Assembly: GCF_001462395.1 (NCBI RefSeq)
Contig: NZ_LNTB01000001.1
Span: 1,170,001 to 1,202,000 of the forward strand
DNA from: Pyrodictium occultum
GTDB lineage: Archaea > Thermoproteota > Thermoprotei_A > Sulfolobales > Pyrodictiaceae
Length of the DNA stretch: 32,000 bases
Direction: 5' to 3'
Of this stretch, positions 6,856 to 30,458 are shown piece by piece. The notes below the pieces were generated by a model. It was not told the origin of the DNA. It did no database searches and saw nothing but the letters and a program-made list of their open reading frames with translations. Numbering within the stretch: the first letter of the stretch is position 1; each line of letters opens with the position of its first letter. A program made the translations under genes and the position numbers.

Positions 6856-6887
6856 CCATGCAGGTTATGAGCGGCGAGGATGTGCTG

Positions 6888-10145: not shown

Positions 10146-10156
10146 CTTGAAGAAAG

Positions 10157-10675: not shown

Positions 10676-10835
10676 GCCCTGTCACCCTTGGAGTTTAGCC
10701 CGTGTTTCTGCATACTACCTCTGAAGCGGCATTGCTAGGGTTTCCGAGGGCCTGGCTCAGCCTCTAGTCTTGTCCTAATATGGGTATAGGCTGCGCTCCA
10801 CCCTGTTACACTAGTTGCAGTAGTAAAACATATAG

Positions 10836-11165: not shown

Positions 11166-11166
11166 C

Positions 11167-11385
11167 TTAACCGCTCACCTCGTAGCGGCTTGGAAGCTCA
11201 AGCTTATATGCTCTTCTGCTCCATCGTCTGGCCAGCCCACGCCTAGCCATCTCCGCCAGAATCCTGCCGGCGGTCCGTGTGGAGACTCCAAGTATGTAGG
11301 CCAGCTGGTCAACCGTTACATATATATAGCCTAGCGTTAGTAGTGTGGACGCAAGCCTGCTAACATCAATCCTCACGCGCGGCAT
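11167..11385 (-). CDS. small winged-helix/HTH DNA-binding protein
   Basis: 72 aa. VDQLAYILGVSTRTAGRILAEMARRGL is a typical HTH recognition segment. Its stop is 1 nt from the start of the next gene (10836..11165). Confidence 0.5.
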   Translation of the reverse strand: MPRVRIDVSRLASTLLTLGYIYVTVDQLAYILGVSTRTAGRILAEMARRGLARRWSRRAYKLELPSRYEVSG

Positions 11386-11533
11386 CTCCTCCCCATTAGC
11401 GTCGGCGGTCCTGCGGCTACGCTTCTGGGAGGCAGCCGAAGCTAATGGCTACGCCTCCTCTCTGCTGAGAGAATTAGAGCTTTAGAGCCTCTCCAGGTGG
11501 TACTATGCATCATAGCGGGGGCTGCATGGGGCC

Positions 11534-13093
11534 GTGTACACTCTAGAGCATGTGCCAGTGTATGTGCCGGATACAAGCGTCATTGTGGAGGGCGTGGTCT
11601 CAAAACTCATTAGTGAGGGAAAAATAAGGGGCAAGATAATAATCCACAGAGCCGTCATAGCCGAGCTTGAGAGCCAGGCCAACAAGGGGAGGGCCACTGG
11701 CTACGCAGGCCTTGAGGAGATACGCAGGCTAAGAGAGCTAGCCGAGAAGGGCCTCATAGACCTCGAGCTGGCTGGCCAGAGGCCAAGCCTGCAGGAAATC
11801 AGAGGCGCTGGGATAGGCGCGATAGATGCCATCATAAGGGACTATGCCTATGAGGCGGGTGCAACTCTCATCACAGCCGACCGCATACAAGCGCTAGTAG
11901 CCGAGGCAATAGGAGTAAGTGTAATATACATACAGCCGCATGGGGAGGAGAAGCTACGCCTTGAAGAATTCTTCGACGAGAACACTATGAGCGTCCATCT
12001 CAAAGAGGGGAGTCCTCCCCGGGCAAAGAAGGGCACCCCCGGCAACTGGGTCCTCGTAGACCTGTCCGCTAAGCCGCTAAGCAGGGAGGACGTGGAAACC
12101 ATAGCCCAGGAGACCGTTGAAGCCGCTAAACGCCGCCCGGACGGGTTCATAGAGATAGACCGGGAAGGCTCAACCATAATCCAGCTCGGCAGCTACAGGA
12201 TAGTGATAACTAGGCCGCCACTAAGCGAGGGCTGGGAGATAACGGCAGTAAGGCCCGTGAAGAAGCTCCACATAGAGGACTACAACTTGCCGTCGAAGCT
12301 CCTGCGCCGGCTTGACGAAAGAGCGGAGGGCATACTAATAGCAGGGGCGCCGGGCATGGGCAAGACAACCTTCGCCCAAGCTCTTGCAGAGTACTATGCG
12401 CGTAAAGGCAAGGTGGTTAAGACAATAGAATCGCCACGCGACATGATACTGCCTCCGGACATAACGCAATACTCAAAGAACTGTGCTGACATAGGAGAGC
12501 TCCATGATATACTCCTCCTCAGCAGGCCCGACTACACGGTCTTCGACGAGCTCCGCGACGACCAGGACTTCCGCCTCTACATAGACCTACGCCTAGCAGG
12601 CATTGGGATGATTGGAGTAGTTCACGCTACCACGCCGATAGACGCGGTGCAGCGGTTCATCCGTAGAGTAGATATAGGCATGCTCCCAAGCATAATAGAC
12701 ACTGTGATATTCATAAACAAGGGACGCGTGGAAACCGTATACGAGCTCCGTATGACGGTGAAGCTGCCCACGGGGCTCCGGGAAGCAGAGCTTGCTAGAC
12801 CGGTTGTAGAGGTTCGTGATGCTCTCACCGGCGAGTTAGCCTACGAGATCTACACATTCGGAGAGCAGACCGTAGTAGTGCCCGTGAAACAGGTATCATT
12901 TTCAGCGTTCGGAGAAAGGATAAAGAGGCTAATAGAGCGTATGCTTCCTGGAGCCGAGGTGGAGGTGAAGGACAACCTAGTAGTTGTTAACGTGCCGAGG
13001 GTTGCGGCTAAGGCACTCATGAAGAAGATGAAGAAGATAAAGAAGCTCGAGGACAAGTACGGGGTATCCATAAGGGTCAATATGACGGGCTAG
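11534..13093 (+). CDS. PIN domain / PilT-like P-loop ATPase / KH-like domain protein (COG1855-type)
   Basis: 519 aa with a GTG start. The N-terminal PIN has VPDTSVIVEG. Walker A is GAPGMGKTT and the Walker B-like segment is DYTVFDELRD. The C-terminal basic KH-like tail is KKMKKIKKLEDKYGVSIRV. Confidence 0.8.
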   Translation: MYTLEHVPVYVPDTSVIVEGVVSKLISEGKIRGKIIIHRAVIAELESQANKGRATGYAGLEEIRRLRELAEKGLIDLELAGQRPSLQEIRGAGIGAIDAIIRDYAYEAGATLITADRIQALVAEAIGVSVIYIQPHGEEKLRLEEFFDENTMSVHLKEGSPPRAKKGTPGNWVLVDLSAKPLSREDVETIAQETVEAAKRRPDGFIEIDREGSTIIQLGSYRIVITRPPLSEGWEITAVRPVKKLHIEDYNLPSKLLRRLDERAEGILIAGAPGMGKTTFAQALAEYYARKGKVVKTIESPRDMILPPDITQYSKNCADIGELHDILLLSRPDYTVFDELRDDQDFRLYIDLRLAGIGMIGVVHATTPIDAVQRFIRRVDIGMLPSIIDTVIFINKGRVETVYELRMTVKLPTGLREAELARPVVEVRDALTGELAYEIYTFGEQTVVVPVKQVSFSAFGERIKRLIERMLPGAEVEVKDNLVVVNVPRVAAKALMKKMKKIKKLEDKYGVSIRVNMTG

Positions 13094-13132
13094 CCGCCCC
13101 TCCATCCCTCAGAGGGAGCGGGCGGATACGCA

Positions 13133-13591
13133 ATGAGCGATACTAGGCGGAGGAGGGGTTTTGAAGCTGAGCGGGAGCTTGTGAGGAAGCTCTGGGGCAG
13201 CGGCTTCGCTGTCGTGCGCGCACCCGCTAGCGGCGCCCGTGTGAGGAAAGCCGTGTACCCGGATATAGTGGCCATGTTTAAAGGCAAGATATTCGCGCTT
13301 GAGGTTAAATACCGCAGTGACAACTCCCCCATCTACATCGAGAAGGAGCAGATACAGAAACTCCTAGAGTTTGCTCGCAGGGCAGGAGCCACACCCTTGA
13401 TAGCAGTTAAGAGGCCGCATCAGGGCTGGCGCCTAGTACCGCTAAGAGTGGCCAAGGAGACCTCCTCCGGGAGAATAAGGATAGACGAGGAAGTGCTCAA
13501 GAAGGCCATGAGCCTGGAAGAGTTCGTAACCTACGCTACGAATACTAGCCTGGAGAGCTTCATGAAGAGGGGCCAGGACTCAGCTGGGTAA
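13133..13591 (+). CDS. hjc: Holliday junction resolvase Hjc
   Basis: 152 aa. RRGFEAERELVRKLWGSGFAVVRAPASG ... PDIVAM ... ALEVKYR carries the E-x-D-x-E-x-K nuclease core arrangement of archaeal Hjc. Confidence 0.85.
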   Translation: MSDTRRRRGFEAERELVRKLWGSGFAVVRAPASGARVRKAVYPDIVAMFKGKIFALEVKYRSDNSPIYIEKEQIQKLLEFARRAGATPLIAVKRPHQGWRLVPLRVAKETSSGRIRIDEEVLKKAMSLEEFVTYATNTSLESFMKRGQDSAG

Positions 13592-13650
13592 GTTATCTTC
13601 ATCCCCCACATGCTTATCCGTCCGGGAGTAACTCATCACGCACCTATGCC
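13571..13650 (-). ncRNA. candidate C/D box sRNA
   Basis: The reverse strand reads GGCAUAGGUGC GUGAUGA(C) GUUACUCCCGGA(12 nt) CGGA(D'-like) UAAGCAUGUGGGGG AUGAAGA(C'-like) UAACUUACCCAG(12 nt) CUGA(D) GUCCUGGCC. Both guide spacers are exactly 12 nt. The flanks GGCAUAGGUGC/GUCCUGGCC can form a terminal stem of about 9 bp with two bulges. It lies 16 nt downstream of the stop of 13667..14740 and overlaps the last 21 nt of hjc antisense. Confidence 0.4.
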
Positions 13651-13666
13651 TAGCGGCCGGTGAGCC

Positions 13667-14740
13667 CTAGTCAGGCCTAAGCCTTATATCCCTGAACATA
13701 AGCTTGCCACGATGCCTCCATATCACACGCACTGTGTTCGTAGAGCCTGGCTTCAGCCTTAGATTGAGCGTCTTTGACTCGCCTGGCTTCAGCTCGCCCA
13801 CCACAGCCCTGTCGACCACGTTTCCTACCGCGAATACTGTCACGACAAGATTCTCGGCCCTATCGTCGCCGGCATTGGACACTTCGAGCTTTAAAGCATC
13901 AGCGCTAACACTGTAGCTGGCTTCTATCCTAGGCTCCGGTGCTTCGATGCGGTACACGAGTATCGAAGACACTAGCAGCTCCCTGGGATAGTACTCGCCG
14001 GTGCCTTTATGCTCAAGCCTAAGTTGTACTGCATCGCCTATATCCAGGGCAAACTCGTTTGTACCAACGCTTTTGCTTATCGTTGAAGTACCCTCACCGG
14101 TGCTAACTACAAGGCTCGCACTCGTGTGTGGTATGTAAGCCACTATTCTAGCCTTCATACCGCTGAGCCGCCCCGGTAGGCTCAGCTCAATGACATCGCC
14201 GGGTTTGAGTGATATCGCACCGCTCCAGAAATGGTAAAACGAGCGGACTGTATCATAGGATCCCATGAGCAGTAGACCTACATGGTCTACCACAAACTCT
14301 CTTACACCCATATACTCGATGCCCACAGTGTGATCCTTGCGTCGCTTCGAGTTGACTATGGGTGTGACATCGAACACCAGCTTACAGAAAAAGCCATCCC
14401 CCATTCTGGCACATATACTCGGCTTAAACTCTCTCGTAACTACAACACCGTTAAATAGCACCTTCCACCGGGGTATCTCCATGGTAGCGCTCCTTGCCCC
14501 AACCTCGAGCAGCGCCTTGTCCACAGTGGCGGATCTTATGCCATGCTCGAATGTTGTCGAGTAGGTAGTTGGGTGCCCGGAACCCCCTAACGTGACCTCG
14601 GGCAAGCTATTCTCATACACTAGATCCATGTTACCCTGGCCGCTAACGTATAGTTGCAGACCTCCATCACTCATAGAGTAGTCCCTCCTTCCAGCATTCT
14701 GGTGATAACGTTCCACTTTTAGTACATTACGTGCCTCCAT
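13667..14740 (-). CDS. hypothetical beta-rich protein, C-terminal CARDB-like repeat
   Basis: 357 aa with no obvious signal peptide or TM. The C-terminal LEVSNAGDDRAENLVVTVFAVGN...LKPGESKTLNLRLKP resembles CARDB/Ig-like domains. It lies 55 nt downstream of XPB on the same strand. Confidence 0.5.
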   Translation of the reverse strand: MEARNVLKVERYHQNAGRRDYSMSDGGLQLYVSGQGNMDLVYENSLPEVTLGGSGHPTTYSTTFEHGIRSATVDKALLEVGARSATMEIPRWKVLFNGVVVTREFKPSICARMGDGFFCKLVFDVTPIVNSKRRKDHTVGIEYMGVREFVVDHVGLLLMGSYDTVRSFYHFWSGAISLKPGDVIELSLPGRLSGMKARIVAYIPHTSASLVVSTGEGTSTISKSVGTNEFALDIGDAVQLRLEHKGTGEYYPRELLVSSILVYRIEAPEPRIEASYSVSADALKLEVSNAGDDRAENLVVTVFAVGNVVDRAVVGELKPGESKTLNLRLKPGSTNTVRVIWRHRGKLMFRDIRLRPD

Positions 14741-14795
14741 GGATCAAGAGCCTGGCAGGCCGGGCAAGGCTGGAACTACGACATGCTACTAGCGG

Positions 14796-16394
14796 TCAGA
14801 GGGAGCGTAGCAGCTTTCTTAGAGTAGCCTCCTCTTGAGTGCCTCGTATTGCTATATAGTAGAGTTTTGCAGATTTGCCGGGTTTCGGCCTGAGCAGTCT
14901 TCCAAGCCTCTGTATAAACTGTCTTCTTGAGGCAGTGCCGGAGAGCACCACGCCTACATTAGCATCAGGTATATCTATACCCTCATCCCCTACAGTTGTG
15001 AGTACAAGCGCTTTTAACCTATTATGCTTAAATAGCTCGAATATGATTTTCCTCTTGCTTTTCTCCGTCTTTCCAGTCACCACGGGGATTCCAAGCTCTT
15101 TTCCAACAGCCTGGGCCTGGTCAACATACTGCGTAAATACTATTATCTTCGAGCCTCTCATGTACTCAGCCTCTATAATGCTCCGAGCCTTCTCAAGCTT
15201 GGACTTTGACAGTGCTAGTATACGCCTAATCCGAGCCAATAGCTGCAGAGCTTTACGGGCCGACTCGTCGCCCATCGACGCAGCCTTTACGAGTTCCTCT
15301 ACCCTCCTACCCCTAGCTAGTACTAGGTAGTCCTTACGGAGCCTCTTGTACTCCTCCAGCTCCTTCCGGCTAAGATCCACAAGCACGGGAATTATTTCGA
15401 ATGATGCTATGTACCCAGCAGACATGAGGTCCTCGATAGAACGTTCATAGACTACTCCGCCTACGAGCCGGAAAAGCTCCTCATGTTTACCATCCTCCCG
15501 GTATGGTGTAGCCGATAAACCAAGCCTATAGGGTGCAAGCACGGATTCTGCAATAGCCCTAAACTTATCAGCAGGCAGGTGGTGAGCCTCATCAACTACG
15601 AGGAGAGAGAACTTATCAAATAGCAAGCCGATGTTACGGAAGGCGGACTGATAAGTAGCGATAGTAACAGGCTTCACGCTCTTCTCGTCAGAGTAGAAGG
15701 CACCGACAGACGATTTGGAGAGGGAGGTGAACTTTTCTATCTTATCCATCCACTCCACGAGCTGCTCACGGGTGTAAACTACTATGAGTGTAGGCACAGA
15801 GAGCCTGGCCATGGCCGCCAGCGCTACCACCGTTTTGCCGGCTCCAGTGGGCAACGCGATAACTCCACGATACCCGTTACGTATCCAAGTATCTACTGCC
15901 TCCTCCTGGTAGTCACGCAGTTTTCCCCTGAACGAGATAGGGTAGCTGCCTGTCCCGAGAAGCCCTGTACGGTCATGTATACTGAAGCCTTCATGCCGTA
16001 GCCTCTCAATTACATCAAGCAGCGCGTAAGGCTTCACTACGAATCCTCTAAGAGCCCTAGAGTATCTGACGACCCCTTTATCCCTAAATACGGCAAGATA
16101 ATCTGTTAGGAGGCGTTTTGATCGTAGAAGGAATCCCTTGGGGGATGCATATATCTCAACTATGCTTGACTCTTCAAGGAGCTTTTCAAGAACGCTGCGC
16201 GAGTCTTTGTCAAGCTCCGCGCCATAGGACTTCAAGGTGTCAATAATATCTGTTAGTTTGTCAACATTACTTATGTCCGTTGTTAGCTCGAACCAGCTAC
16301 AGCCATCACGTCTGCCTAGATAGGATGCCATGCTGGCTATTCGGCGGAAATCTTCTCTATCAAGCCATCGGCATATTCGGAACCGCAGATACAA
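14796..16394 (-). CDS. xpb: XPB/Rad25-type SF2 DNA repair helicase
   Basis: 532 aa. Motifs: LRDYQEEAV, motif I LPTGAGKT, motif II VVDEAHHL, motif III LGLSATPYREDG (includes the XPB RED motif), motif VI FIQRLGRLLR. An N-terminal damage-recognition-like domain is present. Confidence 0.9.
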   Translation of the reverse strand: MYLRFRICRWLDREDFRRIASMASYLGRRDGCSWFELTTDISNVDKLTDIIDTLKSYGAELDKDSRSVLEKLLEESSIVEIYASPKGFLLRSKRLLTDYLAVFRDKGVVRYSRALRGFVVKPYALLDVIERLRHEGFSIHDRTGLLGTGSYPISFRGKLRDYQEEAVDTWIRNGYRGVIALPTGAGKTVVALAAMARLSVPTLIVVYTREQLVEWMDKIEKFTSLSKSSVGAFYSDEKSVKPVTIATYQSAFRNIGLLFDKFSLLVVDEAHHLPADKFRAIAESVLAPYRLGLSATPYREDGKHEELFRLVGGVVYERSIEDLMSAGYIASFEIIPVLVDLSRKELEEYKRLRKDYLVLARGRRVEELVKAASMGDESARKALQLLARIRRILALSKSKLEKARSIIEAEYMRGSKIIVFTQYVDQAQAVGKELGIPVVTGKTEKSKRKIIFELFKHNRLKALVLTTVGDEGIDIPDANVGVVLSGTASRRQFIQRLGRLLRPKPGKSAKLYYIAIRGTQEEATLRKLLRSL

Positions 16395-20186: not shown

Positions 20187-20948
20187 TTGACCTTCAGGGC
20201 GGTCTATCCTGCAGCTACGAAGTTTAAGTACATAGTCCAGTCGATAGTTAAGGTTATGGATGAGATACCCTTCACAGCGACCCATGAAGGGCTCGATGTG
20301 AGAACGCTGACCCCTGACAAGACTACAATGATTGTAATGAGACTCCCAGTAACGACGTTCGAGGAGTACGAGCTCACGGAGGATAAGAAGACGTTTATAG
20401 TACCCTCTGACGAGCTTAACCGTATAGCCAAGAGGGGTACCCGTAACGATCTTGTAGAGCTTAAGCTCGACGAGGAGCATCGCCGTCTCGAAGTGAACTT
20501 CATAGATAAGAAGACGGGTGTTGTGAGAAGCTTCTACGTGCCGCTGAGGGAGGGTGTTGTCGAGGAGCTGAGCGAGCCCCAGGTAGAGCTTACAGTCACT
20601 GCCAGAATGGTTGCCGACGACTTCAAAAACATTATAAATGATGCCAAGGTGGTGAGCGATGAAGTGGAGTTCAGCAGCTACGAGGATAGAATGGAGGTTT
20701 ATGCGGAGTCCGCTCAGAAACGCTATCATGGTGTATTCCGTGTAGGCGAGCTCCTCATCAGCCTAGAGGTTGAGGGTAGCACTCCCGTGAAGGCTAAGTA
20801 CTCTATAGACTTGCTGAAGGCCAGTGTAAAGGCGACATCTGCTGCAGACACCGTGACCATCCAGTACGGGGAAGCTCTCCCTATGAGGATAAGCTTCGAT
20901 CTACCCAGCGGCGGGCTGCTGATATACTGGGTGTCACCGAGAATATAG
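20187..20948 (+). CDS. pcn: DNA polymerase sliding clamp (PCNA)
   Basis: 253 aa with a TTG start. Typical PCNA length and pattern: FKYIVQSIVKVMDEIPFTATHEGLDVRTLTPDKTTMIVMRLP...KAKYSIDLLK...PMRISF. Confidence 0.9.
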   Translation: MTFRAVYPAATKFKYIVQSIVKVMDEIPFTATHEGLDVRTLTPDKTTMIVMRLPVTTFEEYELTEDKKTFIVPSDELNRIAKRGTRNDLVELKLDEEHRRLEVNFIDKKTGVVRSFYVPLREGVVEELSEPQVELTVTARMVADDFKNIINDAKVVSDEVEFSSYEDRMEVYAESAQKRYHGVFRVGELLISLEVEGSTPVKAKYSIDLLKASVKATSAADTVTIQYGEALPMRISFDLPSGGLLIYWVSPRI

Positions 20949-21492: not shown

Positions 21493-21873
21493 ATGCAGCG
21501 CGTAGTGGTAGAGGTCGATATGGCTAAGTACAAGATGGTGGATCTTCCAGGCGATGAAGCTCTAAAACTTCTAGAAAAGATTGGTGAGCTTAGAGGTGGG
21601 CTTACGCCGGATATGCAGGAGGTTATAAGGTATATTAGGAATTTCGACGAGTTCTACACGTATATGCGCAAGAAGTTCAAGGACTATATTGCGCCGCCGC
21701 ACAAGCCGGAAGACTATATCAGGGGTGCAGTAGTTGTGGACAAGATCAAGCTCTATAAGGAGGACGAGGAGAAACGGGTTGTAATAGTGTTTGATAGGAG
21801 AGTAGACGTTGACATCATTGTCGACGCGCTACGGGCGCTGGGCTACAAGGTCGAAATAAAGAAGGTGTTTTAG
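21493..21873 (+). CDS. hypothetical protein (126 aa)
   Basis: ORF track, protein-like composition. The alternative start MAKYKMVDL is at 21520. It is not L7Ae despite the similar size. Confidence 0.5.
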   Translation: MQRVVVEVDMAKYKMVDLPGDEALKLLEKIGELRGGLTPDMQEVIRYIRNFDEFYTYMRKKFKDYIAPPHKPEDYIRGAVVVDKIKLYKEDEEKRVVIVFDRRVDVDIIVDALRALGYKVEIKKVF

Positions 21874-21898: not shown

Positions 21899-22123
21899 CT
21901 ATTTCCTTCTACGTCTCCTACCCAGGGTAGGCACTTTCACCGCACTAAGCATGCTAGTGGCTTCGGCCTTCCCGACCTCCCCCTTTACATACTTCTCAAG
22001 TATCTCTGTGCGCTTAACCATGGCCTCGAGGAGAGCTGCGTTAATATCGATAGCCTCCTCCTCAACTTCTTCCTCACTCTCGTGGGCCTTCTCGCTGACT
22101 TCCTCGAATACCTCCTCCGACAT
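21899..22123 (-). CDS. small acidic protein with RRRRRK tail (possibly Rpo13-like)
   Basis: MSEEVFEEVSEKAHESEEEVEEEAIDINAALLEAMVKRTEILEKYVKGEV...GRRRRRK. The layout is an acidic N-terminus, a helix-turn-helix-sized core and a basic tail, which resembles crenarchaeal RNA polymerase subunit Rpo13 as I recall it. GTTTATTG lies about 45 nt upstream. The overlapping plus-strand ORFs look like shadows. Confidence 0.4.
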   Translation of the reverse strand: MSEEVFEEVSEKAHESEEEVEEEAIDINAALLEAMVKRTEILEKYVKGEVGKAEATSMLSAVKVPTLGRRRRRK

Positions 22124-22215
22124 TGCCGCCCTCACCCTAGCGTACCCGCCATCCCCCGGGTTTCCGGCAATAAACTCTTACCTAAACCTCTTCAATCACA
22201 ACTCCCGGATAGTGA

Positions 22216-24093
22216 TCACCGAGCAATATTTACTAGCAGTGGCGCGTCTAACCCTACATCGCCTACAACCACGTAGCCTTTCGGCAGCCTCGCTATTGTG
22301 TAAGCGAGCGCCTCTGGGGAGTCGTCGGCAGAGTTCTTCGAGATGGCCTCTGCCGCGAATTTTGCCTCTGCAGGATCTGTATGCCTAAGGCATATCACTG
22401 TACCCATGTTGGCCGCCACTGTCTTATCTATCTCGCTCGCTCTCTGGGTTACAAGAACTAGCATTACCCCATACTTCCTAAGCTCAGCAGCTATGAGGGC
22501 TACTATGTTACGTTTTCTCGTCTTGCGCGCGAAGAGGTGTGCCTCGTCTATAAGGAGTATGTAGCGCAGCTTGTCCGAGGGGCCTAGCCTCTTAACCATG
22601 TAGTACAGTTTGTAAAGTAAGGTGTCCGTGTATAGTATCATTTGCTCCCTCGTAGCCAGCCGGGATAGGTCAAAGACTATGGCTGCTGTCCTGCTGCCAG
22701 GCAGGGGGAACGGCACACTGCTCCCTCCGAATGCCGTGGCTAGGGACGACAGGTACATAGCTACTATGCCGGCCCTGGGCTCCTTCTTGGCCATACCCTC
22801 TAGTATCTTCACTACGTCGGTAATTGTTGGCAGCTTCCTGTTCCACGTTGAGGGATCGTCCTCCCTTATCCCGGCATTCTCGTAGGCGAGCAGGATGGCT
22901 TCTTCGAGTATTCTAGACTGTATCGGGCCCAGCTGGTAGAGCTCTGCTATGAGTTCTACAAGCTCCAATGCCCTCTCTCGGGGGCTTTGCCCTGTGAAGT
23001 CAAGGGGGTTGGGTGCCTCCTTGGAGGCGTCTACTATCCTCACGCCGGGTACCCCGCCGAGCATTGTGGAGTATTCTCCATGGGGGTCTATGACCAGCAG
23101 TATTGGGCTCTTGGCTTCCTCCAGTATTGATCTTGCTAGCCGGATTGCTGTGGACGACTTGCCCGCCCCCGTCGTTCCTGTTATCAGCACGTGAGGGTTC
23201 TCTCGTGTTGTGGCTGTGGCCAGGCGGTAGTCCACCCTCGGGTAGCTCGGCGCCCACCAGGCGCCTGTTATCGGCTGCGTCTGTGTTATAGTGTAGCGTA
23301 TGGTGGGGGCATAAACCATCACGGCTTCAAGGACGCCTAGCCGGTAGCCGGTGCGCTCGGCGAGCCTTAGTGTAGTGGGTAGTGCTTCGACGGGGAGTAC
23401 TGATACCATTGCCACTAGCAGCAGTGGTTGTGGCAAGGCGAGCGCGGCGACGAGCACCGGGAGGAGGAGGCCGGCTGTTAACGTGTCTAACGAGGATACA
23501 AGGGACACCGGTACTGCGAGGACCGCTGATGAGAGAAGCAGTGCCTGGTAGAGGCTCTGCCCGATGTAGTTTACCGGGTTCACCATCTCCTCTACAGGGA
23601 AGGCCAGCAGGGATGAAGTTATCAGTATGATGGCTGCATTTCTGCGTGCCGTGCAGAGGCTGTATTCCAGCAGGCTCGGCTTAATAGCCTGTAGGAGGTT
23701 CCTTGCCGCCACATCTATGTATGGCCTTGAGCGTATCAGCGATACAAGTCTCGCTATGAATACAGCTCCCGAGGCTACTAGAGCCAAGAGTAGGGGTATG
23801 TCTGAAGCAAAGCCTCTCCAGAGAGCCTCGATGCCGCCTTGGAGTGTGCCGGCCTGGCTCGTCCCGGGTTTTGAAATGCTTGATGCGAGCGAGTAGATGC
23901 CTATAGCCGCGTTGTGCAGCAGCGCGATTACCGCTATGGCGAGGGATCTTGAGAGGAGTGCAGCTACTACAGCTATGAGCGTCATCGATGATGTATAGCC
24001 TGTAGAGCCGCCCCAGGCGCTGAGGAGCGTGGAGACCAGCGAAAGTAATACTAGCGCTAGCACCCATGAACGGACTCTGGCGGTGGCGTCCAA
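22216..24093 (-). CDS. polytopic-membrane-anchored HerA/VirB4-like P-loop ATPase
   Basis: 625 aa with a TTG start (GTG 24063 possible). Residues about 10-250 contain at least six long hydrophobic stretches. Then come HVLITGTTGAGKSS (Walker A), LLVIDPHGEY, ILLIDEAHLF (Walker B) and LVTQRASEIDKTV...ICLR, the HerA/DUF87-VirB4 pattern. Confidence 0.8.
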   Translation of the reverse strand: MDATARVRSWVLALVLLSLVSTLLSAWGGSTGYTSSMTLIAVVAALLSRSLAIAVIALLHNAAIGIYSLASSISKPGTSQAGTLQGGIEALWRGFASDIPLLLALVASGAVFIARLVSLIRSRPYIDVAARNLLQAIKPSLLEYSLCTARRNAAIILITSSLLAFPVEEMVNPVNYIGQSLYQALLLSSAVLAVPVSLVSSLDTLTAGLLLPVLVAALALPQPLLLVAMVSVLPVEALPTTLRLAERTGYRLGVLEAVMVYAPTIRYTITQTQPITGAWWAPSYPRVDYRLATATTRENPHVLITGTTGAGKSSTAIRLARSILEEAKSPILLVIDPHGEYSTMLGGVPGVRIVDASKEAPNPLDFTGQSPRERALELVELIAELYQLGPIQSRILEEAILLAYENAGIREDDPSTWNRKLPTITDVVKILEGMAKKEPRAGIVAMYLSSLATAFGGSSVPFPLPGSRTAAIVFDLSRLATREQMILYTDTLLYKLYYMVKRLGPSDKLRYILLIDEAHLFARKTRKRNIVALIAAELRKYGVMLVLVTQRASEIDKTVAANMGTVICLRHTDPAEAKFAAEAISKNSADDSPEALAYTIARLPKGYVVVGDVGLDAPLLVNIAR

Positions 24094-24138
24094 GCCCCTG
24101 GCCCCTGGTGGTGGCCCGGAGCACCGGCTGCGGCCTAA

Positions 24139-24153
24139 GGGTGAAATAGTATA
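24139..24153. promoter_or_regulatory. single AT-rich element (GAAATAGTATACT) in the 62-nt divergent spacer
   Basis: It is the only TATA-like sequence between the divergent ATPase and helicase genes. The geometry fits the minus-strand gene better (about 50 nt to TTG 24093) than ATG 24156. Confidence 0.25.
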
Positions 24154-24155
24154 CT

Positions 24156-27017
24156 ATGACCAGGCGTAGTGATGGAAGAATCCGGGGCGCCTTCCGGCTG
24201 CTGCACCCCGTTCTCCAGAAGGTGCTAGCCCGCTATGGGTACATAAGGCTGACCGAGATTCAGGAGAAGGTGATACCGGAGGTTCTGCGCGGCAACCATG
24301 TGCTAGCGATAGCCCCCACGGGTAGCGGGAAGACTGAGGCAGCCCTCTTCCCGGTTTTCTCGAGCCTTATAGGTGCCCGGCCTGGCAGCGTGTACGCTGT
24401 CTACATAACCCCCTTGCGCAGCCTTAACCGCGACATATTCAAGCGCATGAAGTCTATAGCGGCAGCTATCGGGCTCGAGCTAGTGGTACGTCACGGCGAC
24501 AGCACGGCTAGCGAGAAGAAGAGGTTCCTCGAGAACCCTCCGCACATAATGGTTACCACTCCGGAGTCCTTCTACTTCCTCCTGAGTGTCGATCGATTCC
24601 GCCAGAGTATAAGGGGGCTCAAATACATAATAGTTGACGAAGCACATGAGCTTGTCTCGGATAAGCGTGGTGCAGAGCTATCCCTGGCCATAGAGAGAGT
24701 GGCTAGACTCTATGCTAGGTCAAGGCTTCAGATAATAGGTCTCTCCGCTACTGTCAGCGACCCCTTCACCATTGCAAGGCTTCTCGCGGGCGATAGGTAT
24801 GTACGCATCGTAGAGGCCGACGGCGCTAAGCGATACCATGTAACGGTTACGGCACCGCCGGCCTCTACGAGTGGTGATCCACAGAGAGAGCTTGCCTCAA
24901 GGATAGCGATAATAAAGAGGATAATAGAGGGGACTGGAGGCAATGTTCTGGTGTTCACAAACACGCGAGACACTGCCGAGGTACTAGGTGCCCTGCTCAA
25001 GCAGGCTCTCGGCGAGAATGCAGTAGAGGTTCATCACGGTAGTCTAAGCCGTGAGAGGAGGGTTGATGTTGAGCAGAGGCTCCGAAGCGGTGAAGTGAAG
25101 GCTGTTGTGGCCACGTCAAGCCTCGAGCTGGGTATAGATGTTGGCGCGGTAAGCAGGGTTATCCAGTACATGTCTCCGAGGCAGGTTGTGAAGCTTGTTC
25201 AGCGCGTAGGCAGGGCGGGGCACCGAGTGTCGGATGTGTCTAGGGGCGTTATAGTAGCTGCGGGCAATGTGTTTGACGTGCTTGAGTCTGCGGTTATAGC
25301 TGCAAGAGCTATGAGAGGTAATTTGGAGAAGTTTTGTTACCCAAGGAAACCCTATGACGTCCTTGTGCATCAGATTGCGGGGATGCTCGTAGAGCTGGGC
25401 GAGACAAGCATAAACACCATATATAATGTTGTGTCCGCTAGCGGCTATTATAGGGAGCTCAGCCTTGACGAGCTCCGTCAAGTGTTAAGCTACATGGAGG
25501 CTGCAGGTCTCGCAAGGGTTAGAGGGCATAGGGTCAGACTCGGCCCCGCCACGAAGAGCTACTACTTCACGGTCACAATGATACCGGATACCAAACAGTA
25601 CAATGTATACGAGGTGGGCACTGGCAGGAAGATCGGTGTGCTCGACGAAGAGTTTGTAGCAACCCTAGAGCCTGGCTCGAAGTTCGTCCTGGGCGGGCAG
25701 ACCTGGGAGGTGGTAAATGTAGAGGAGGCTGGAGTAAGAGTTAGGCAGACGAAGGAGGAAAGGCTGATCCCGCCTGCATGGGAGGGCGACCTAATCCCGG
25801 TAGAGTATAGCGTCGCACGTGAGATAGGTAGCGTGCTACGGCGCTACGAGAGGCTGGGAAGCAGTGTACTAGGCCTATACCCGCTTGACCCTAATGCTAG
25901 GCGTCTTGTCGACGAAACGCTGTCTAGGCACATTTCGAGAGGGCTGCCGCTGCCGAGCGACAGAAGGGTGGTAATAGAGCATTATGGAGACACCTTCATA
26001 ATCTATAGTATGCTTGGGAGCAGGGGGAACAAGGCACTGGAGTACGTTATATCAGCCTATATATCGGAGATTAAGGGCTACTCCCCAGTAACTGCAAGCA
26101 CACCCTACATTGTCGCAGTCCGGCTTGCATCCCGCGAGCACGCCGGCTTTATGGAGAAGGTGCTTCGTAGCATAGCCAGCCTGCCCCGGGACGAGGTGGA
26201 GAAGCTCCTGCATAAGGCGGTTCTGGGCAGCAGGCTATTCCAGTGGATTATGCTGCACGTTGCTGTGAGAAGCGGTGCCGTGCGGAGAAGTAGGGACATA
26301 GACATCAAGCGGGTTAAGTCGGTTATACAGAAGCTCAGGGACACCCTGCTAGGTATAGAGGCGTATCGTGAAATAGAGACACGGAAAATAGACTCCAGGA
26401 TACTCTTAAAGTTTCTCGAGGATCTTAGAAGGGGCCGGATAGAGCTAGCCGTAGTGAGCCTTAGGACACCTTCTCCTCTCGCAGAGCATGCTTTAGCCGA
26501 GGCCAGGCTTGGAGACCGTGTAGTATCGAATAGCATACCCTCAACAGTGCTTGTCGAAGCCGTTAAGCGTAGGATAGAGTCAAAGGAGATCCTGCTACTC
26601 TGCCTAATGTGCGGTAATGTTTGGAGAAGGCAGCTAAAGCACCTGGAGAATGAGGTGAAATGTCCTCGCTGTGCCGCCCGCCTCGTGTACCCAGCCCTCT
26701 CCCAGGACCGCATAAACATGGCTAGGAGGCTTCTTGAAAAGAGGAGGAGAGGATCTCGCCTCTCCCCCCAGGAGAAGAAGGCGTTGAACGAGGTCATGGA
26801 GTCTGCCAATCTAGTACTTAGCTATGGCAAAAAGGCGGTGGAAGCGCTTGTGTCAACGGGTATAGGGGCCCAGACTGCTAGACGGGTGCTCCAGAAGCTA
26901 GTGTTTGGCGAGGATGCATTCTACCGTGCCATAGTAGAGGCGGAGGCGAACTATCACCGGTATAAGCATCGGCTCGAGAAAGGCTCGAGAAAAGGCAGGG
27001 CTAGCGGCGCCATGTAA
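24156..27017 (+). CDS. lhr: Lhr-type large SF2 (DEAH) helicase with C-terminal zinc ribbon
   Basis: 953 aa. Motifs: LTEIQEKVIP, motif I APTGSGKTEAALFPV, motif II IVDEAHEL, motif III GLSATV, motif VI QRVGRAGH. A long winged-helix/domain-4-like extension follows, then CLMCGNVW...CPRCAARL. Confidence 0.85.
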   Translation: MTRRSDGRIRGAFRLLHPVLQKVLARYGYIRLTEIQEKVIPEVLRGNHVLAIAPTGSGKTEAALFPVFSSLIGARPGSVYAVYITPLRSLNRDIFKRMKSIAAAIGLELVVRHGDSTASEKKRFLENPPHIMVTTPESFYFLLSVDRFRQSIRGLKYIIVDEAHELVSDKRGAELSLAIERVARLYARSRLQIIGLSATVSDPFTIARLLAGDRYVRIVEADGAKRYHVTVTAPPASTSGDPQRELASRIAIIKRIIEGTGGNVLVFTNTRDTAEVLGALLKQALGENAVEVHHGSLSRERRVDVEQRLRSGEVKAVVATSSLELGIDVGAVSRVIQYMSPRQVVKLVQRVGRAGHRVSDVSRGVIVAAGNVFDVLESAVIAARAMRGNLEKFCYPRKPYDVLVHQIAGMLVELGETSINTIYNVVSASGYYRELSLDELRQVLSYMEAAGLARVRGHRVRLGPATKSYYFTVTMIPDTKQYNVYEVGTGRKIGVLDEEFVATLEPGSKFVLGGQTWEVVNVEEAGVRVRQTKEERLIPPAWEGDLIPVEYSVAREIGSVLRRYERLGSSVLGLYPLDPNARRLVDETLSRHISRGLPLPSDRRVVIEHYGDTFIIYSMLGSRGNKALEYVISAYISEIKGYSPVTASTPYIVAVRLASREHAGFMEKVLRSIASLPRDEVEKLLHKAVLGSRLFQWIMLHVAVRSGAVRRSRDIDIKRVKSVIQKLRDTLLGIEAYREIETRKIDSRILLKFLEDLRRGRIELAVVSLRTPSPLAEHALAEARLGDRVVSNSIPSTVLVEAVKRRIESKEILLLCLMCGNVWRRQLKHLENEVKCPRCAARLVYPALSQDRINMARRLLEKRRRGSRLSPQEKKALNEVMESANLVLSYGKKAVEALVSTGIGAQTARRVLQKLVFGEDAFYRAIVEAEANYHRYKHRLEKGSRKGRASGAM

Positions 27018-27076
27018 TACTTGCGGCCGCCCCCGGCTCAATACGCTTCCTAAAGGCGGGGCATGTGTAGGGGCGC

Positions 27077-27352
27077 ATGAACAACATAGTGGAGTTTATC
27101 AACACACTTACAATAAAAGTGATAAGTATAGCATGGGGCCTCTTTCTGCTGACATGGAGCATAGGCTGGCTCCTCAGGGGAGCGCCGATACCCCTCCTAA
27201 GAGTCAAGAGGGTAGGTCAAGACTTCGTGGAGGACGCTGTTTGGGCGGCCTTCTGGCTAGCCCTGGGTTCCTCAATATTCGCCCTCGTATCCCACATAGT
27301 GAGCTCTATCGCGTCACCTCCCCCAGTACCCTTCAACGCCACCGCCGGCTAA
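27077..27352 (+). CDS. cedA1: VirB2-like two-helix pilin candidate (CedA1-like)
   Basis: 91 aa. Hydrophobic helix KVISIAWGLFLLTWSIGWLL, basic loop RGAPIPLLRVKRVGQD, hydrophobic helix AVWAAFWLALGSSIFALVSHIV, and a Pro-rich tail. The call rests on architecture and gene order, not on sequence identity to a known pilin. Confidence 0.6.
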   Translation: MNNIVEFINTLTIKVISIAWGLFLLTWSIGWLLRGAPIPLLRVKRVGQDFVEDAVWAAFWLALGSSIFALVSHIVSSIASPPPVPFNATAG

Positions 27353-27365: not shown

Positions 27366-28823
27366 TTGATACTGACGGGCTACTTCCTCCTAATAACAGC
27401 CCAGCTCGCAGTACTGACATACTATCTGGGAGTACTGTTGTACATGTTACCCATACCAGTGCGGGGGGTCAAGCGCTGGGCTCCAACGCTGATACAGGAC
27501 AGCCTCTGGGCAAGCATATTGATGACACTATACTCGGCACTGCTCAGCTTCTCCGACAGCCTTGCCAGGCTTAGCGGCCACACCCTAAGCGAGATAATAG
27601 CATATATGGAGTTAACGCTCGAGAAATTCATACTAATGAACTATGCATTGCAGCTGCTTGTCGGTGTAGCCTCAATAGCCCATAGCCTCGTAGGCAGAAT
27701 CTTTAGCATAATCACATTTCCCTTCTCACTAGTGATCCAGGGCATAGTAACGACTGCAGCGACGGTAGTTGTGCTAGCAAGCATAATCTCAGCGGCTAAG
27801 GCTAAGCTCACAGCTCTCGCAATAGCACTAATATCTATACCATTCCGTATAGGTAGGAACGCTGGCGCCTCGCTCCTATCATTTATCCTTGTAAGCAACA
27901 TAATGCTCCCATTCCTACCTCAATGGATCAACTTGATATCTAGCAGTGTTGGCTCTGAGCAAACACTAGTGAGATCCAAGGCAGTGGAAGTCCTGCTAAA
28001 CAATACAGAGCCGGTACATGTGTGGGGGGAGGTAAAAGACGCCTATAACTACCGTCCACCTGTAGGCTTAGTCAAGTTTATAAACAGCAATGGCGCAGTG
28101 TTCCAGTTCATAATCCATGTAGACGGCTGCTACTATGTCACCAAGCCGCTCAAGATGCTGCCCAGTGGAAGCTACAGAGTAGAGGTAGAGTACCTATCTG
28201 TGCTTCTCAACTCTAGCAAAGCTATCGTGAATCTTCCACGAGACGCTAGGCTGACCTACGAGCTGGACGAGGCAAAGTACCGCATGGATATAACCGTTGA
28301 GAGGGATGCAGTATTCATCGAACCCATAGGCCTTATGATAGTCAAGGGATGCAATATAGAAAATGTGTACCAGTCCCTTAAGATGCTAAAGCTTAAGTGC
28401 ACACCGCTATCTGGCAACGTTAGGATCGACATATACTCCTTAGGCGCGAACGATGTCAAGCTGCAACCTAATACTCTAAACGGCGTCTACAACTACTATG
28501 TAAACATAAGCGAGAAGCCTTGGAGGGGCGTAAGAGTCTACGTAAAGACGATAACTCTAGAAATGGCTAATGCCTCAACAGCCCTCTCGCTAGAATTCTA
28601 TAAGAATATCGACTATCATGAGCTTTACCAGCTGAATGATCTCGAGCTCTCGGAAGGCATGATTTATCCTGAGCGCTCGCTGGAAGATATTGCGATTGAT
28701 ATAATAGTTAATGGGATAACTTTCCCTCTTGCGGTTTTCTCCTACCTAACAGTTATGTCGATGGTGTCTTTGAGCCTTGCGAGGGTGATCGGTGCCTCGT
28801 ATCCTCGTGTGATATTTGACTAA
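27366..28823 (+). CDS. cedA: polytopic membrane protein with large beta-rich ectodomain (CedA-like / VirB6-like)
   Basis: 485 aa with a TTG start. About 6-7 hydrophobic helices lie in residues 1-195. Residues about 200-440 are a hydrophilic beta-rich segment, followed by a final TM (ITFPLAVFSYLTVMSMVSLSL). It starts 13 nt after the pilin-like gene. Confidence 0.6.
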   Translation: MILTGYFLLITAQLAVLTYYLGVLLYMLPIPVRGVKRWAPTLIQDSLWASILMTLYSALLSFSDSLARLSGHTLSEIIAYMELTLEKFILMNYALQLLVGVASIAHSLVGRIFSIITFPFSLVIQGIVTTAATVVVLASIISAAKAKLTALAIALISIPFRIGRNAGASLLSFILVSNIMLPFLPQWINLISSSVGSEQTLVRSKAVEVLLNNTEPVHVWGEVKDAYNYRPPVGLVKFINSNGAVFQFIIHVDGCYYVTKPLKMLPSGSYRVEVEYLSVLLNSSKAIVNLPRDARLTYELDEAKYRMDITVERDAVFIEPIGLMIVKGCNIENVYQSLKMLKLKCTPLSGNVRIDIYSLGANDVKLQPNTLNGVYNYYVNISEKPWRGVRVYVKTITLEMANASTALSLEFYKNIDYHELYQLNDLELSEGMIYPERSLEDIAIDIIVNGITFPLAVFSYLTVMSMVSLSLARVIGASYPRVIFD

Positions 28824-29001
28824 TACCGTGCTGGTGGTGAATAAATTGAAGTTGGCGGTAACGTTTAGAAGATCCTTGTACATAGCTCTCGGCATCTCCC
28901 TTTATGGAGCCATGTATGGTATGCTATCAAAAAATATGTATCTATTTGTAATATCGGTAATAAATATAGTTATATTTATGCTTATAAGAAGTAGTTGGTG
29001 A
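28816..29001 (+). CDS. cedA2: 61-aa two-TM protein (CedA2-like / VirB3-sized)
   Basis: SLYIALGISLYGAMYGML and MYLFVISVINIVIFMLI are two hydrophobic helices. It overlaps the preceding gene by 8 nt and the next by 7 nt (track coordinates). The DNA here is very AT-rich. Confidence 0.45.
   Translation: MTNTVLVVNKLKLAVTFRRSLYIALGISLYGAMYGMLSKNMYLFVISVINIVIFMLIRSSW
28961..28988 (+). promoter_or_regulatory. possible internal promoter (TAAATATAGTTATATTTATGCTTATAAG) for the ATPase gene
   Basis: A cluster of TATA-like boxes 20-45 nt upstream of ATG 29007, which would give a leaderless ATPase transcript. Confidence 0.3.
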
Positions 29002-29006
29002 TAGCT

Positions 29007-30458
29007 ATGATAATTAGCAGAATTATATCTAGTATCACTAATCATATATCTAAACTACGTAGGAGCAGGAGTTGGGCCAGCGGGATAGCGAGGGTGGGAG
29101 GGTTATGCGTAACAAACATCGGCTCTGGTATCAGTGGCGTTGTTGCTGAAGTTAAGGGTGACGAGCTCTGTTTTAAAAAGCTCTTCAGCGACAGGCTCAG
29201 CCTTATTGATAGCAGGATATGCGGCATCTTCATACTATATAGGCGTGTTAGGAGCAGCTACGCAGCTAGGCTGCTTGAATCTAAAATACTAACTTATGAG
29301 GTAGAATTGGAAAGGAATCCCGAAAATATGCGTGCACGGGTGAAACTGGATACGCTACGAGAAATCTATAGGACGATAGTAGAGCGCGATGAGCCTGTTG
29401 AGCCCTCCCTCCATATAATGGTTTGCGGGGGGCCAGAAACCATAGTTGACGTCTACCGCGGTGTCGCAGACTCCCTAGCGCTGTTAGGGTGTAAGCTCCG
29501 CCCTAAATGTGTTAGCGTAAATTTTTTGAAAAGTTTCAATAAGAGGGTTATACAGCCTCGCGGCCTCATTCTGGGCAAGTTCTGGGAGCTAGTGGATTAC
29601 TTAGACTCTATGACACGGTATGTTGAGTCAGCGTTTGTGCCTATAGGCTATGACATCCTCCTGGGACGTATTGTAGGCATCCCGCTCTGGGATGACACTG
29701 GGGCGAGGCATACAGTTGTTGTAGGGCCTACCGGAAGGGGCAAGACGAGTCTTGCAGCACTGGTAGCTGTGCTCTCTTCTCTGCTGCATAACGCTACAGT
29801 GGTGGCGGTGGATCCCAAGGGTGATCTATGGAGCCTGTTATCCTGGAGCGGCCTAGCCGTCCATGTGGAGGTTGAGAGTAGCAGAGATGCAGCCTATCTT
29901 GCTTCTAGGATTCTTCGCGCCCTCGGCGAGAGCGTAGGAGGTATTGTGGTTGTGGACATACGGTACCTAAGTGAGGGGGAGAAATACCTGCATCTCGAAA
30001 CAGCTTTGTCAGACGCCTTCTCGCTACTGCAAGGCGTTGGTAGAAGATCGCTCCTCATAGTCGACGAGTTCTGGCGGGTTAAGGAGAGCTATGTGGTCAG
30101 GAAGATCGTGAGGGAGGGGAGGAGCAGCGGTATTAGCCTCATGCTGGTCTCCCAGCAGCCGGAGGATTTCGGCCCCGATGTATGGAGTAACTCAAGCAAC
30201 TCGGTGGTGTTCGGCTCTCACGACGAAACATATCTCGAGAGCATTAAGAGGCTTAGCGGGATGGCCTCTCAGGATGTCTCCTTTATCCGCCGTCTAGGGG
30301 TTGGAGAGGCGCTTGTGCAGTATCATGGCTCGCGGAGGGCTCTCCCGGTGAGAGTCCTCCAGGCACCGATAACAGTTAAGAATCCGGGTGTAGGCGGGAC
30401 GGGCAGCTGGGGTAGGGTACGTTATGGGCAAGCGGCTGATAGTGCAGCGCAGAGGTAG
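29007..30458 (+). CDS. cedB: VirB4/HerA-like secretion ATPase (CedB-like); alternative TTG start at 28995
   Basis: About 483 aa. An N-terminal domain of about 230 aa is followed by HTVVVGPTGRGKTS (Walker A), VVAVDPKGDL, LLIVDEFWRV (Walker B) and MLVSQQPEDF...VVFG. These motifs are paralogous to the membrane-fused ATPase at 22216..24093. Confidence 0.75.
   Translation: MIISRIISSITNHISKLRRSRSWASGIARVGGLCVTNIGSGISGVVAEVKGDELCFKKLFSDRLSLIDSRICGIFILYRRVRSSYAARLLESKILTYEVELERNPENMRARVKLDTLREIYRTIVERDEPVEPSLHIMVCGGPETIVDVYRGVADSLALLGCKLRPKCVSVNFLKSFNKRVIQPRGLILGKFWELVDYLDSMTRYVESAFVPIGYDILLGRIVGIPLWDDTGARHTVVVGPTGRGKTSLAALVAVLSSLLHNATVVAVDPKGDLWSLLSWSGLAVHVEVESSRDAAYLASRILRALGESVGGIVVVDIRYLSEGEKYLHLETALSDAFSLLQGVGRRSLLIVDEFWRVKESYVVRKIVREGRSSGISLMLVSQQPEDFGPDVWSNSSNSVVFGSHDETYLESIKRLSGMASQDVSFIRRLGVGEALVQYHGSRRALPVRVLQAPITVKNPGVGGTGSWGRVRYGQAADSAAQR

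Follow-up and report, generated by a model that had tools for sequence, protein, structure and literature searches.

Chromosomal DNA exchange between archaeal cells by the Ced system runs through a conduit consisting of the CedA channel, the CedA1 pilus and CedB; in A. pernix, the pilus is made of CedA1 (PMC9905601). A second Ced ATPase, CedD, was published in 2025. It is a membrane-anchored protein resembling HerA, VirB4 and VirD4, is essential for DNA import and co-occurs with CedB; its reported range covers Sulfolobales, Acidilobales and most Desulfurococcales (PMC11868833, PMC11823120). A half similar to the N-terminal part of VirB4 lies between its membrane anchor and its ATPase, and the ATPase responsible for exit of DNA from the donor cell is called unknown in the published model (PMC11868833). 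Here we describe a locus from Pyrodictium occultum (contig NZ_LNTB01000001.1, positions 1,170,001 to 1,202,000; this whole stretch of 32,000 nucleotides (nt) is our window), where the gene of a membrane ATPase of 625 amino acids (aa) and the gene of a 953-aa Lhr-type helicase lie divergently next to ced-like genes. Pyrodictium abyssi and uncultured Pyrodictiaceae are the closest relatives. We denote the ATPase and its family TM-HerA.

TM-HerA is a third, architecturally distinct and previously undescribed family of membrane HerA-clade ATPases which is conserved beside ced and differs from both CedB and CedD. No published description of it was found in the literature searched, the 2004 FtsK-HerA survey (Iyer et al.) not being covered. 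Since the protein is intact, conserved, located beside ced in two orders and distinct from CedB and CedD, it deserves examination as a concrete candidate for a component that the DNA-transfer machine still lacks.

The membrane ATPase and its relation to known motors

The ATPase gene and its parts are arranged as follows.

22216-24093, minus strand: TM-HerA ATPase gene, 625 aa, TTG start
23356-24093, minus strand: N-terminal polytopic membrane domain, residues 1-246 (hydropathy and AlphaFold 2 (AF2) helices)
22219-23211, minus strand: HerA/VirB4-type P-loop ATPase domain, residues 295-625 (profiles and AF2, modelled with confidence over residues ~295-622)
nt 23155-23178, minus strand: Walker A of the ATPase domain, GTTGAGKS
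nt 22537-22557, minus strand: Walker B of the ATPase domain, LLIDEAH

The 625-aa protein is an intact ATPase of the FtsK-HerA superfamily fused to a polytopic membrane domain. It belongs to the HerA/DUF87 clade because of its Pfam DUF87 (PF01935) score (54.5 bits, cut-off 23.2; HerA_C reaches 32.4 bits, cut-off 22), its conserved Walker A, Walker B and arginine finger and its HerA/VirB4-like fold. Such a fusion had been proposed in the original prediction, which counted at least six hydrophobic helices; hydropathy and the AlphaFold model agree on about eight within residues 1-246. The ATPase motifs quoted there were all found in the translations, those of the 625-aa protein being HVLITGTTGAGKSS (residues 301-314), VIDPHGEY (334-341) and LLIDEAHLF (513-521). 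Across 77 family members, residues G306, G309, G311, K312, D336, H338, E340, E517, E537, R539, K540, Q550 and N562 are invariant, and the Walker B residue D516 is kept in at least 90% of sequences. Walker A, Walker B, the RK motif (R539/K540) and the sensor glutamine Q550 are thus all conserved in the family.

The AF2 model, built from a 22-sequence alignment, has a mean predicted local distance difference test score (pLDDT) of 83 and a predicted template modelling score (pTM) of 0.81, most of the ATPase domain exceeding pLDDT 90. In this model, about 50 residues, including a short beta linker (residues ~250-291), separate the membrane domain from Walker A. Its best Foldseek matches are the DptH C-domain, Sso HerA and VirB4, with expectation values (E) from 1e-12 to 5e-15, and profile matches in the PDB are HerA, DptH, VirB4 and FtsK. 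The membrane domain is strongly divergent among family members. It matched no Pfam or NCBIfam family, showed no relation to CedA (hhalign probability 0.03) and, modelled alone by AF2, reached a pLDDT of only 53 and was not taken into the fold search. Its charged loops suggest that both of its ends are cytoplasmic.

Next, we asked whether the protein is CedD. An authentic CedD, serving as control (L086) and found by a metagenome search with the published cedD quantitative PCR primer, scored 771.7 bits on the NCBIfam CedD model (NF053655, cut-off 600). On the same model the 625-aa protein scored 55.4 bits with a match starting from model position 223, and 17 of its relatives scored 41-104 bits, again in the ATPase part only. 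Identity between the L086 CedD and the 625-aa protein is 24%, limited to the ATPase domain. A search with CedD retrieved a clade which reaches beyond Sulfolobaceae (for example, a 351-aa protein of Staphylothermus hellenicus without transmembrane helices) and no member of the TM-HerA family. A profile of the CedD clade ranked the 625-aa protein 82nd of 95, under generic HerA-like proteins of euryarchaea and bacteria. In a neighbour-joining, that is distance-based, tree of ATPase domains (306 columns, 100 bootstraps), CedD and CedD-like proteins form a clade with 100% support, and the broad TM-HerA clade stands separately with 88%. The hhalign match between TM-HerA and the CedD clade (E 8e-44) begins at CedD column 217, so that the N-terminal domain of CedD has no counterpart in the 625-aa protein.

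Genomic context points in the same direction. From Saccharolobus to Staphylothermus, CedD-like genes adjoin tfb3-like and/or thermosome genes, and not Lhr or PCNA. The decisive result comes from contig JBPKUZ010000010.1, which carries a CedD-like gene (230.6 bits, N-terminal domain and ATPase) as well as a TM-HerA gene (90.5 bits, ATPase only); because both kinds of gene are found there together, TM-HerA is distinct from CedD. The PCNA of this organism is 58% identical to that of the window.

There are reasons to suspect that the 625-aa protein is nevertheless the CedD orthologue of Desulfurococcales/Pyrodictiaceae, provided with a larger membrane anchor. Among named NCBIfam families, CedD ranks first or second for it and for most of its relatives tested, and the CedD clade gives the best hhalign score. 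CedD is also stated to be present in Desulfurococcales, where it co-occurs with CedB (PMC11868833, PMC11823120), and a BLAST-based survey could have counted TM-HerA proteins as CedD. However, the matches of 50-104 bits remain far from the cut-off and never include the CedD N-terminal domain, generic HerA-like proteins outscore the 625-aa protein on the CedD profile, and the fully supported CedD clade, with the Staphylothermus protein and others from outside Sulfolobaceae, leaves TM-HerA outside. Score, missing domain, separate clade, synteny and co-occurrence on one contig together rule out the identification as CedD; the idea of an orthologue is largely refuted and we consider it very improbable. 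Such proteins should therefore not be annotated as CedD on BLAST evidence.

CedD (SiRe_1715/Saci_0667) and TM-HerA are both crenarchaeal membrane ATPases of the HerA/VirB4 clade present in Ced-carrying genomes, and CedD is the closest profile-profile match and the top named family for most TM-HerA relatives. They differ in that CedD has about two membrane helices plus the VirB4-N-terminal-like domain, or no anchor at all, whereas TM-HerA has about eight helices and no such domain. Furthermore, CedD is proven essential for import, whereas TM-HerA is known here from genes alone. Outside Sulfolobaceae, we observed a tfb3-like gene (Zn_Ribbon_TF, ~224 aa) directly 5' of CedD-like genes, often overlapping them (L087 3121-3795, L092/L097/L098/L099, L100 5337-6011). 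This pairing recalls S. islandicus, where tfb3 (SiRe_1717) lies close to cedD (SiRe_1715), and is a useful synteny marker of true CedD.

The relation to CedB is more distant. The CedB-like protein of the window displays the motifs HTVVVGPTGRGKTS (residues 239-252), AVDPKGDL (271-278) and LIVDEFWRV (353-361), and the two ATPases had been described as visibly paralogous. At the superfamily level this is correct (hhalign probability 99.5%, E 1e-22); in a pairwise BLASTP comparison of the two window proteins, however, no significant similarity was detected (E 0.12). The TM-HerA gene adjoins the ced cluster, and the ATPase domain superposes on VirB4 of T. pseudethanolicus with a target-normalised TM-score of 0.74 and a root-mean-square deviation of 3.5. 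Nevertheless, CedB is the most divergent from TM-HerA among the groups compared, and the VirB4-type N-terminal domain is missing from TM-HerA. With 32 bits on the NCBIfam CedB model (NF041017) against a cut-off of 700 and the BLASTP result given above, the 625-aa protein was rejected as CedB.

Generic HerA/DUF87 proteins, including DptH/DndH, are about as close in their ATPase core as CedD (hhalign E 5e-40), and HerA and the DptH C-domain are the top PDB matches. In contrast to HerA, TM-HerA is membrane-embedded and lacks the HAS-barrel N-terminus; no nurA, mre11 or rad50 gene was found near it within the window. Its scores on the HerA models, 59.9 bits (NF040819, cut-off 970) and 53.3 bits (NF040937, cut-off 800), are, like its CedD and CedB scores, far under the cut-offs and do not allow it to be regarded as the HerA double-strand-break repair helicase.

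The original prediction had also recognised the layout of type IV coupling proteins and DNA translocases. TM-HerA does share with FtsK/SpoIIIE and VirD4/TraG/TrwB the layout of an N-terminal membrane domain and, after it, a hexameric motor of the RecA type. The similarity to VirD4 and FtsK is, however, limited to the P-loop region, and the clade of TM-HerA is HerA/DUF87, neither FtsK nor VirD4. As FtsK/SpoIIIE, the protein was rejected on account of a PF01580 match of 24.9 bits covering residues 296-325 only, PDB FtsK matches of ~70 residues and the absence of a gamma domain. As a type IV coupling protein, it was rejected because TrwB_AAD_bind covers residues 295-342 only, T4SS-DNA_transf is absent and TraD models give 20-25 bits; the all-alpha domain of coupling proteins had no Pfam match in the 625-aa protein. 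Judged from these sequence comparisons, TM-HerA is a further paralogue of CedD, CedB and generic HerA and an orthologue of neither CedD nor CedB.

Conserved neighbourhood of TM-HerA genes

When 1.84 billion representative proteins were searched with a profile, 92 representatives of the family were obtained at E <1e-30, many of them 570-660 aa long with the same layout of membrane domain and ATPase. Named members come from Hyperthermus butylicus, Pyrodictium, Pyrodictiaceae, Desulfurococcales, Desulfurococcaceae and metagenome-assembled genomes (MAGs) of unclassified Thermoproteota. A word-indexed protein search with the 77-sequence alignment returned only 5 proteins. In a locus search with the 22-sequence alignment, the matches listed were mostly generic HerA-like, and P. 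abyssi and H. butylicus were not among the matches listed.

In the window, TM-HerA has the following neighbours.

20187-20948, plus strand: PCNA gene (Pfam PCNA_N and PCNA_C)
21493-21873, plus strand: o126, conserved protein of 126 aa, between the TM-HerA and PCNA genes
21899-22135, minus strand: rpo13, downstream of the TM-HerA gene and co-directional with it (Pfam RNA_pol_Rpo13, 29.6 bits, cut-off 25)
24094-24155: divergent spacer between the TM-HerA and lhr genes, 62 nt (sequence read)
24156-27017, plus strand: lhr gene, 953 aa, aLhr1-type Lhr helicase
27077-27352, plus strand: cedA1 (VirB2-like Ced pilin), 91 aa (NCBIfam CedA1)
27366-28823, plus strand: cedA-like gene (VirB6-like channel) with a long C-terminal extension (NCBIfam CedA best family)
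28816-29001, plus strand: small two-helix membrane open reading frame (ORF) of 61 aa between cedA and cedB, conserved in relatives
28995-30458, plus strand: cedB-like VirB4/HerA-type ATPase gene (NCBIfam CedB best family)

Loci of Pyrodictiaceae, Desulfurococcaceae and related MAGs were compared, 13 in all, whose PCNA ranges from 90% down to 29% identity to that of the window, with the following result.

PCNA within ~2 kb of the TM-HerA gene: 13 of 13 loci
o126 near the TM-HerA gene, between it and the PCNA gene: 12 of 13 loci
aLhr1 as divergent neighbour of the TM-HerA gene: 9 of 12 assessable loci
cedA1 and cedA within ~5 kb of the TM-HerA gene: 8 of 12 assessable loci

The adjacency noticed in the original prediction is thus conserved beyond the window for both ced and lhr. 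The ced genes were found near TM-HerA in all Pyrodictiaceae-like loci and in L103, L101, L104 and L009; in L103, no Lhr intervenes, and cedA1 and TM-HerA adjoin each other directly in divergent orientation. aLhr1 adjoins TM-HerA in the loci of Pyrodictiaceae, in two of Desulfurococcaceae/Thermosphaera and in L010 and L011/L012; three lineages lack it at the junction. In P. abyssi, H. butylicus and L106, rpo13 is placed as in the window, and o126 had no match in Pfam, NCBIfam or PADLOC.

Evidently, the block rps19-rpl2-cedB-small membrane gene-cedA-cedA1-(PAPS-reductase-like)-(aLhr1), followed divergently by TM-ATPase-rpo13-o126-PCNA, is old and vertically inherited. It is kept between two orders, in Pyrodictiaceae-like lineages and in Desulfurococcaceae. 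Because genes outside the block vary among lineages, its core, cedB-cedA-cedA1-(lhr) divergent to TM-ATPase-(rpo13)-o126-PCNA, has been retained selectively.

Sequence identity to the window proteins was compared over five of these loci. For TM-HerA/CedB/CedA, the values are 56/56/57, 37/36/39, 39/31/30, 37/34/33 and 29/29/30%, with PCNA at 90-61% over the same loci. Such parallel divergence of the three proteins fits their co-evolution and, equally, weak constraint.

In Desulfurococcaceae-type loci, a PAPS-reductase-like gene (~650 aa, NCBIfam PRK13795 'hypothetical protein') lies between cedA1 and lhr/TM-HerA (L009 4369-6309, L104 5159-7108, L101 8011-9993). The L101 copy contains 4Fe-4S ferredoxin domains and is located 8 nt upstream of the TM-HerA gene on the same strand.

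The helicase neighbour could be assigned with more precision. All of Pfam DEAD, Helicase_C, WH_Lhr and DEAD_assoc are present in the 953-aa protein, as expected for the Lhr type originally proposed, and its architecture comprises a superfamily 2 core, a winged helix, domain 4 and a C-terminal zinc ribbon (CLMCG...CPRC, residues 816-839, nt 26601-26672). The CxxC...CPxC motif is present in 8/8 Lhr orthologues examined at the equivalent genomic position, and the nearest solved structures are those of M. smegmatis Lhr (5v9x and 7lhl). The aLhr1 group is defined by such a C-terminal cysteine motif (PMC8301817). As the protein combines the full Lhr core with the zinc ribbon, like SacaLhr1 and SiRe_1605, its sequence identifies it as aLhr1.

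aLhr1 is nearly ubiquitous in archaea, and its loss in S. acidocaldarius leads to sensitivity to ultraviolet light (UV), 4-nitroquinoline 1-oxide (4-NQO), cisplatin and H2O2, implicating the family in repair of helix-distorting lesions (PMC8301817, PMC10003305). Because of this distribution and the damage sensitivity of the mutant, we regard the 953-aa protein as a general archaeal repair helicase and not a dedicated factor of Ced or DNA transfer. It is no Ced-specific accessory, and three lineages do not have its gene at the junction. An archaea-wide survey saw no conserved neighbourhood of aLhr1 (PMC8301817), whereas here the gene is kept divergent to that of TM-HerA and beside ced.

Possible functions of TM-HerA

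Gene context suggests, as the best single hypothesis and one that we hold tentatively, that TM-HerA is a Ced-associated third ATPase. By analogy with other FtsK-HerA motors, it would assemble into a hexameric ring at the cytoplasmic side of the membrane, anchored by its own membrane domain, and use ATP to pump DNA. It would most likely partner the Ced conduit of CedA channel, CedA1 pilus and CedB, and could hand DNA into the CedA channel or take DNA out of it. The 3'-5' helicase aLhr1 may process transferred or damaged DNA, its role being general and not Ced-specific. This reading is based on the adjacency to ced across two orders, on divergence parallel to that of CedA and CedB and on the lack of an export ATPase in the published model. 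A more specific version, in which TM-HerA is an unrecognised third Ced motor of Pyrodictiaceae/Desulfurococcaceae, acting either as the donor export ATPase or as a CedA-docking equivalent of a coupling protein, and aLhr1 supplies or processes the single strand, is doubtful. Were this version true, Ced would work with three ATPases, and the export of DNA during chromosomal exchange in archaea would gain a molecular handle.

The idea of a second motor for Ced is itself not new, because CedD was already described in 2025; the statement that neither a second motor nor a helicase belongs to the described Ced core is thus outdated (PMC11868833, PMC11823120). What stands of the larger DNA-transfer machine envisaged in the original prediction is the conserved linkage of ced, Lhr and ATPase genes, whereas a second motor had already been published as CedD, the helicase is a general one and PCNA is a steadier neighbour than ced.

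Several observations weigh against a Ced-associated TM-HerA. Its link to DNA transfer is inferred from gene order alone, and DNA is its substrate by prediction only, through analogy with related motors. The conserved block also includes the core genes rpl2, rps19, rpo13 and PCNA, which lowers the functional weight of the ced adjacency, as this may simply be inherited. PCNA (13/13) and o126 (12/13) accompany TM-HerA more steadily than ced (8/12), and in L008 and L010-L012 no ced gene was found within 9-10 kb of it. There was no named Sulfolobaceae member among the results of the TM-HerA family searches, and the parallel divergence rates could merely reflect weak constraint on membrane proteins. 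Finally, UV/NQO screens in Sulfolobales yielded CedD and no third ATPase (PMC11868833, PMC11823120).

Alternatively, TM-HerA could be a housekeeping membrane DNA translocase unrelated to Ced, engaged in FtsK/SpoIIIE-like clearing or segregation of chromosomes or in repair coupled to replication. In this case PCNA, o126 and aLhr1 would be its lasting partners, with ced merely lying in a shared ancestral block. Besides the constancy of PCNA and o126, this explanation can draw on aLhr1, which is the divergent neighbour also in L010-L012 with no ced nearby and whose S. acidocaldarius mutants are sensitive to DNA-damaging agents (PMC10003305), on the co-directional rpo13 gene and on the richness of the window in PolB, PINA, Hjc, XPB and PCNA. 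On the other hand, the orientation of PCNA relative to TM-HerA flips among lineages, so the two form no operon. TM-HerA diverges at the pace of CedA and CedB, much more rapidly than PCNA or Lhr, and its proximity to ced persists in two orders and is direct in L103. There is no gamma domain, and the Pfam FtsK match is confined to 30 residues at the P-loop. We consider a housekeeping translocase a serious rival, if a somewhat less probable one than the Ced-associated ATPase. Even if it has nothing to do with Ced, TM-HerA would be a membrane DNA translocase of an undescribed kind with links to PCNA and aLhr1. We know of no FtsK in the organisms carrying TM-HerA.

It is quite unlikely that the adjacency is a neutral relic and TM-HerA moves protein or peptide instead of DNA, like EssC/EccC of type VII secretion systems or other DUF87 ATPases. 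The FtsK-HerA superfamily does include protein translocases, weak matches to NCBIfam EccC and EssC exist, the membrane domain is unique and uninformative, and unrelated housekeeping genes lie within the block. Yet its closest relatives by structure and sequence (HerA, DptH, VirB4, CedD, FtsK) without exception work on DNA or in its transfer, and both kept flanks are DNA-related, with ced and Lhr on one side and PCNA on the other.

Extremely improbable, finally, is a defence module composed of a HerA-type ATPase and an Lhr-type helicase, as known from HerA-based, Dnd/Dpt, BREX (BrxHI) and Shango (SngC) systems. PADLOC models do match TM-HerA (mad8 94, HerA 86, DndH 56 bits) and the helicase (SngC and BrxHI, ~330 bits each), and the DptH C-domain is the top Foldseek match of TM-HerA. 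But the pair occupies a fixed position among core genes in two orders and is vertically inherited, which reduces the PADLOC matches to family resemblance and effectively refutes a defence island. The regional guanine-plus-cytosine (GC) content of ~0.54-0.58 is like that of the rest of the window, the helicase bears the archaea-wide aLhr1 zinc ribbon (PMC8301817), and Pfam scans of the window revealed no SIR2, DUF4297, nuclease or TerB effector. Matches on plasmids are weak, cover the ATPase part only and come from bacterial DUF87/DptH genes. A plasmid-borne conjugation ATPase was likewise rejected, as no archaeal plasmid homologue was found.

The ced genes and further features of the window

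The 91-aa protein scores 126.7 bits on NCBIfam CedA1, above the cut-off of 100. For the CedA-like protein, the best NCBIfam family is CedA (137.9 bits over residues 1-216, cut-off 330) and for the CedB-like protein it is CedB (72.4 bits, cut-off 700); both scores lie below equivalog cut-offs that were built on Sulfolobaceae. The gene order cedA1-cedA-cedB matches that of Ced loci of relatives, and cedA is syntenic with both other genes in all related loci.

Only the first ~216 residues of the 485-aa CedA-like protein match the CedA model of 259 positions. The rest consists of ~240 mostly non-hydrophobic residues and a terminal hydrophobic helix, and its counterpart in L106 has a weak CarboxypepD_reg match. 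This extension may represent an extracellular domain fused to the channel.

The 61-aa ORF (28816-29001) overlaps both cedA and cedB and encodes two hydrophobic helices. It is 48% identical over 50 aa to an un-annotated ORF of P. abyssi, and called genes of 60, 81 and 53 aa occupy its position in H. butylicus, L103 and L104, respectively. Although it matched no family, its sequence and position suggest that it may be a small CedA2- or VirB3-like Ced component, in lineages said to be without CedA2.

The stop of cedB overlaps the start of rpl2 (30424; overlap 30424-30458), after which rps19 follows, and the order rps19-rpl2-cedB is retained in several lineages (L001, L102, L103, L106). All genes of the run lhr-cedA1-cedA-small ORF-cedB-rpl2-rps19 point in one direction with gaps of at most 59 nt. 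Because of this co-directional arrangement and the cedB/rpl2 overlap, the ced genes may be co-transcribed with ribosomal protein genes, which suggests constitutive expression, unlike that of the UV-induced Sulfolobus genes.

Re-reading of the sequence confirmed the genes, the 62-nt divergent spacer with one AT-rich box and the 59-nt gap without a T-run as originally described. The spacer between the TM-HerA and lhr genes is GC-rich apart from GAAATAGTATACT immediately 5' of the lhr ATG. CCTAAGGG is located at 24134-24141, ~15-20 nt 5' of this ATG, and is followed by the AT-rich box at 24143-24155. The gap from lhr to the 91-aa gene (27018-27076) holds CCTAAAGG at 27049-27056, ~15-20 nt 5' of the cedA1 start codon. 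CCTAAGGG and CCTAAAGG could be weak TATA-like elements of putative leaderless transcripts. The motif CCTAARGG, found 5' of both lhr and cedA1, is not enriched in the window (3 occurrences against 3.5 expected by chance), and a scan for bacterial-type promoters and terminators, whose models are not applicable to archaea, gave nothing relevant.

Further upstream (6789-16394 of the window), genes of replication and repair lie densely packed, namely PolB, DUF2286, PINA-Hjc and XPB. The PolB protein has 1118 aa, with ~390 residues ahead of its exonuclease domain. Synteny of the whole PolB/DUF2286/PINA-Hjc/XPB set extends to P. abyssi and H. butylicus.

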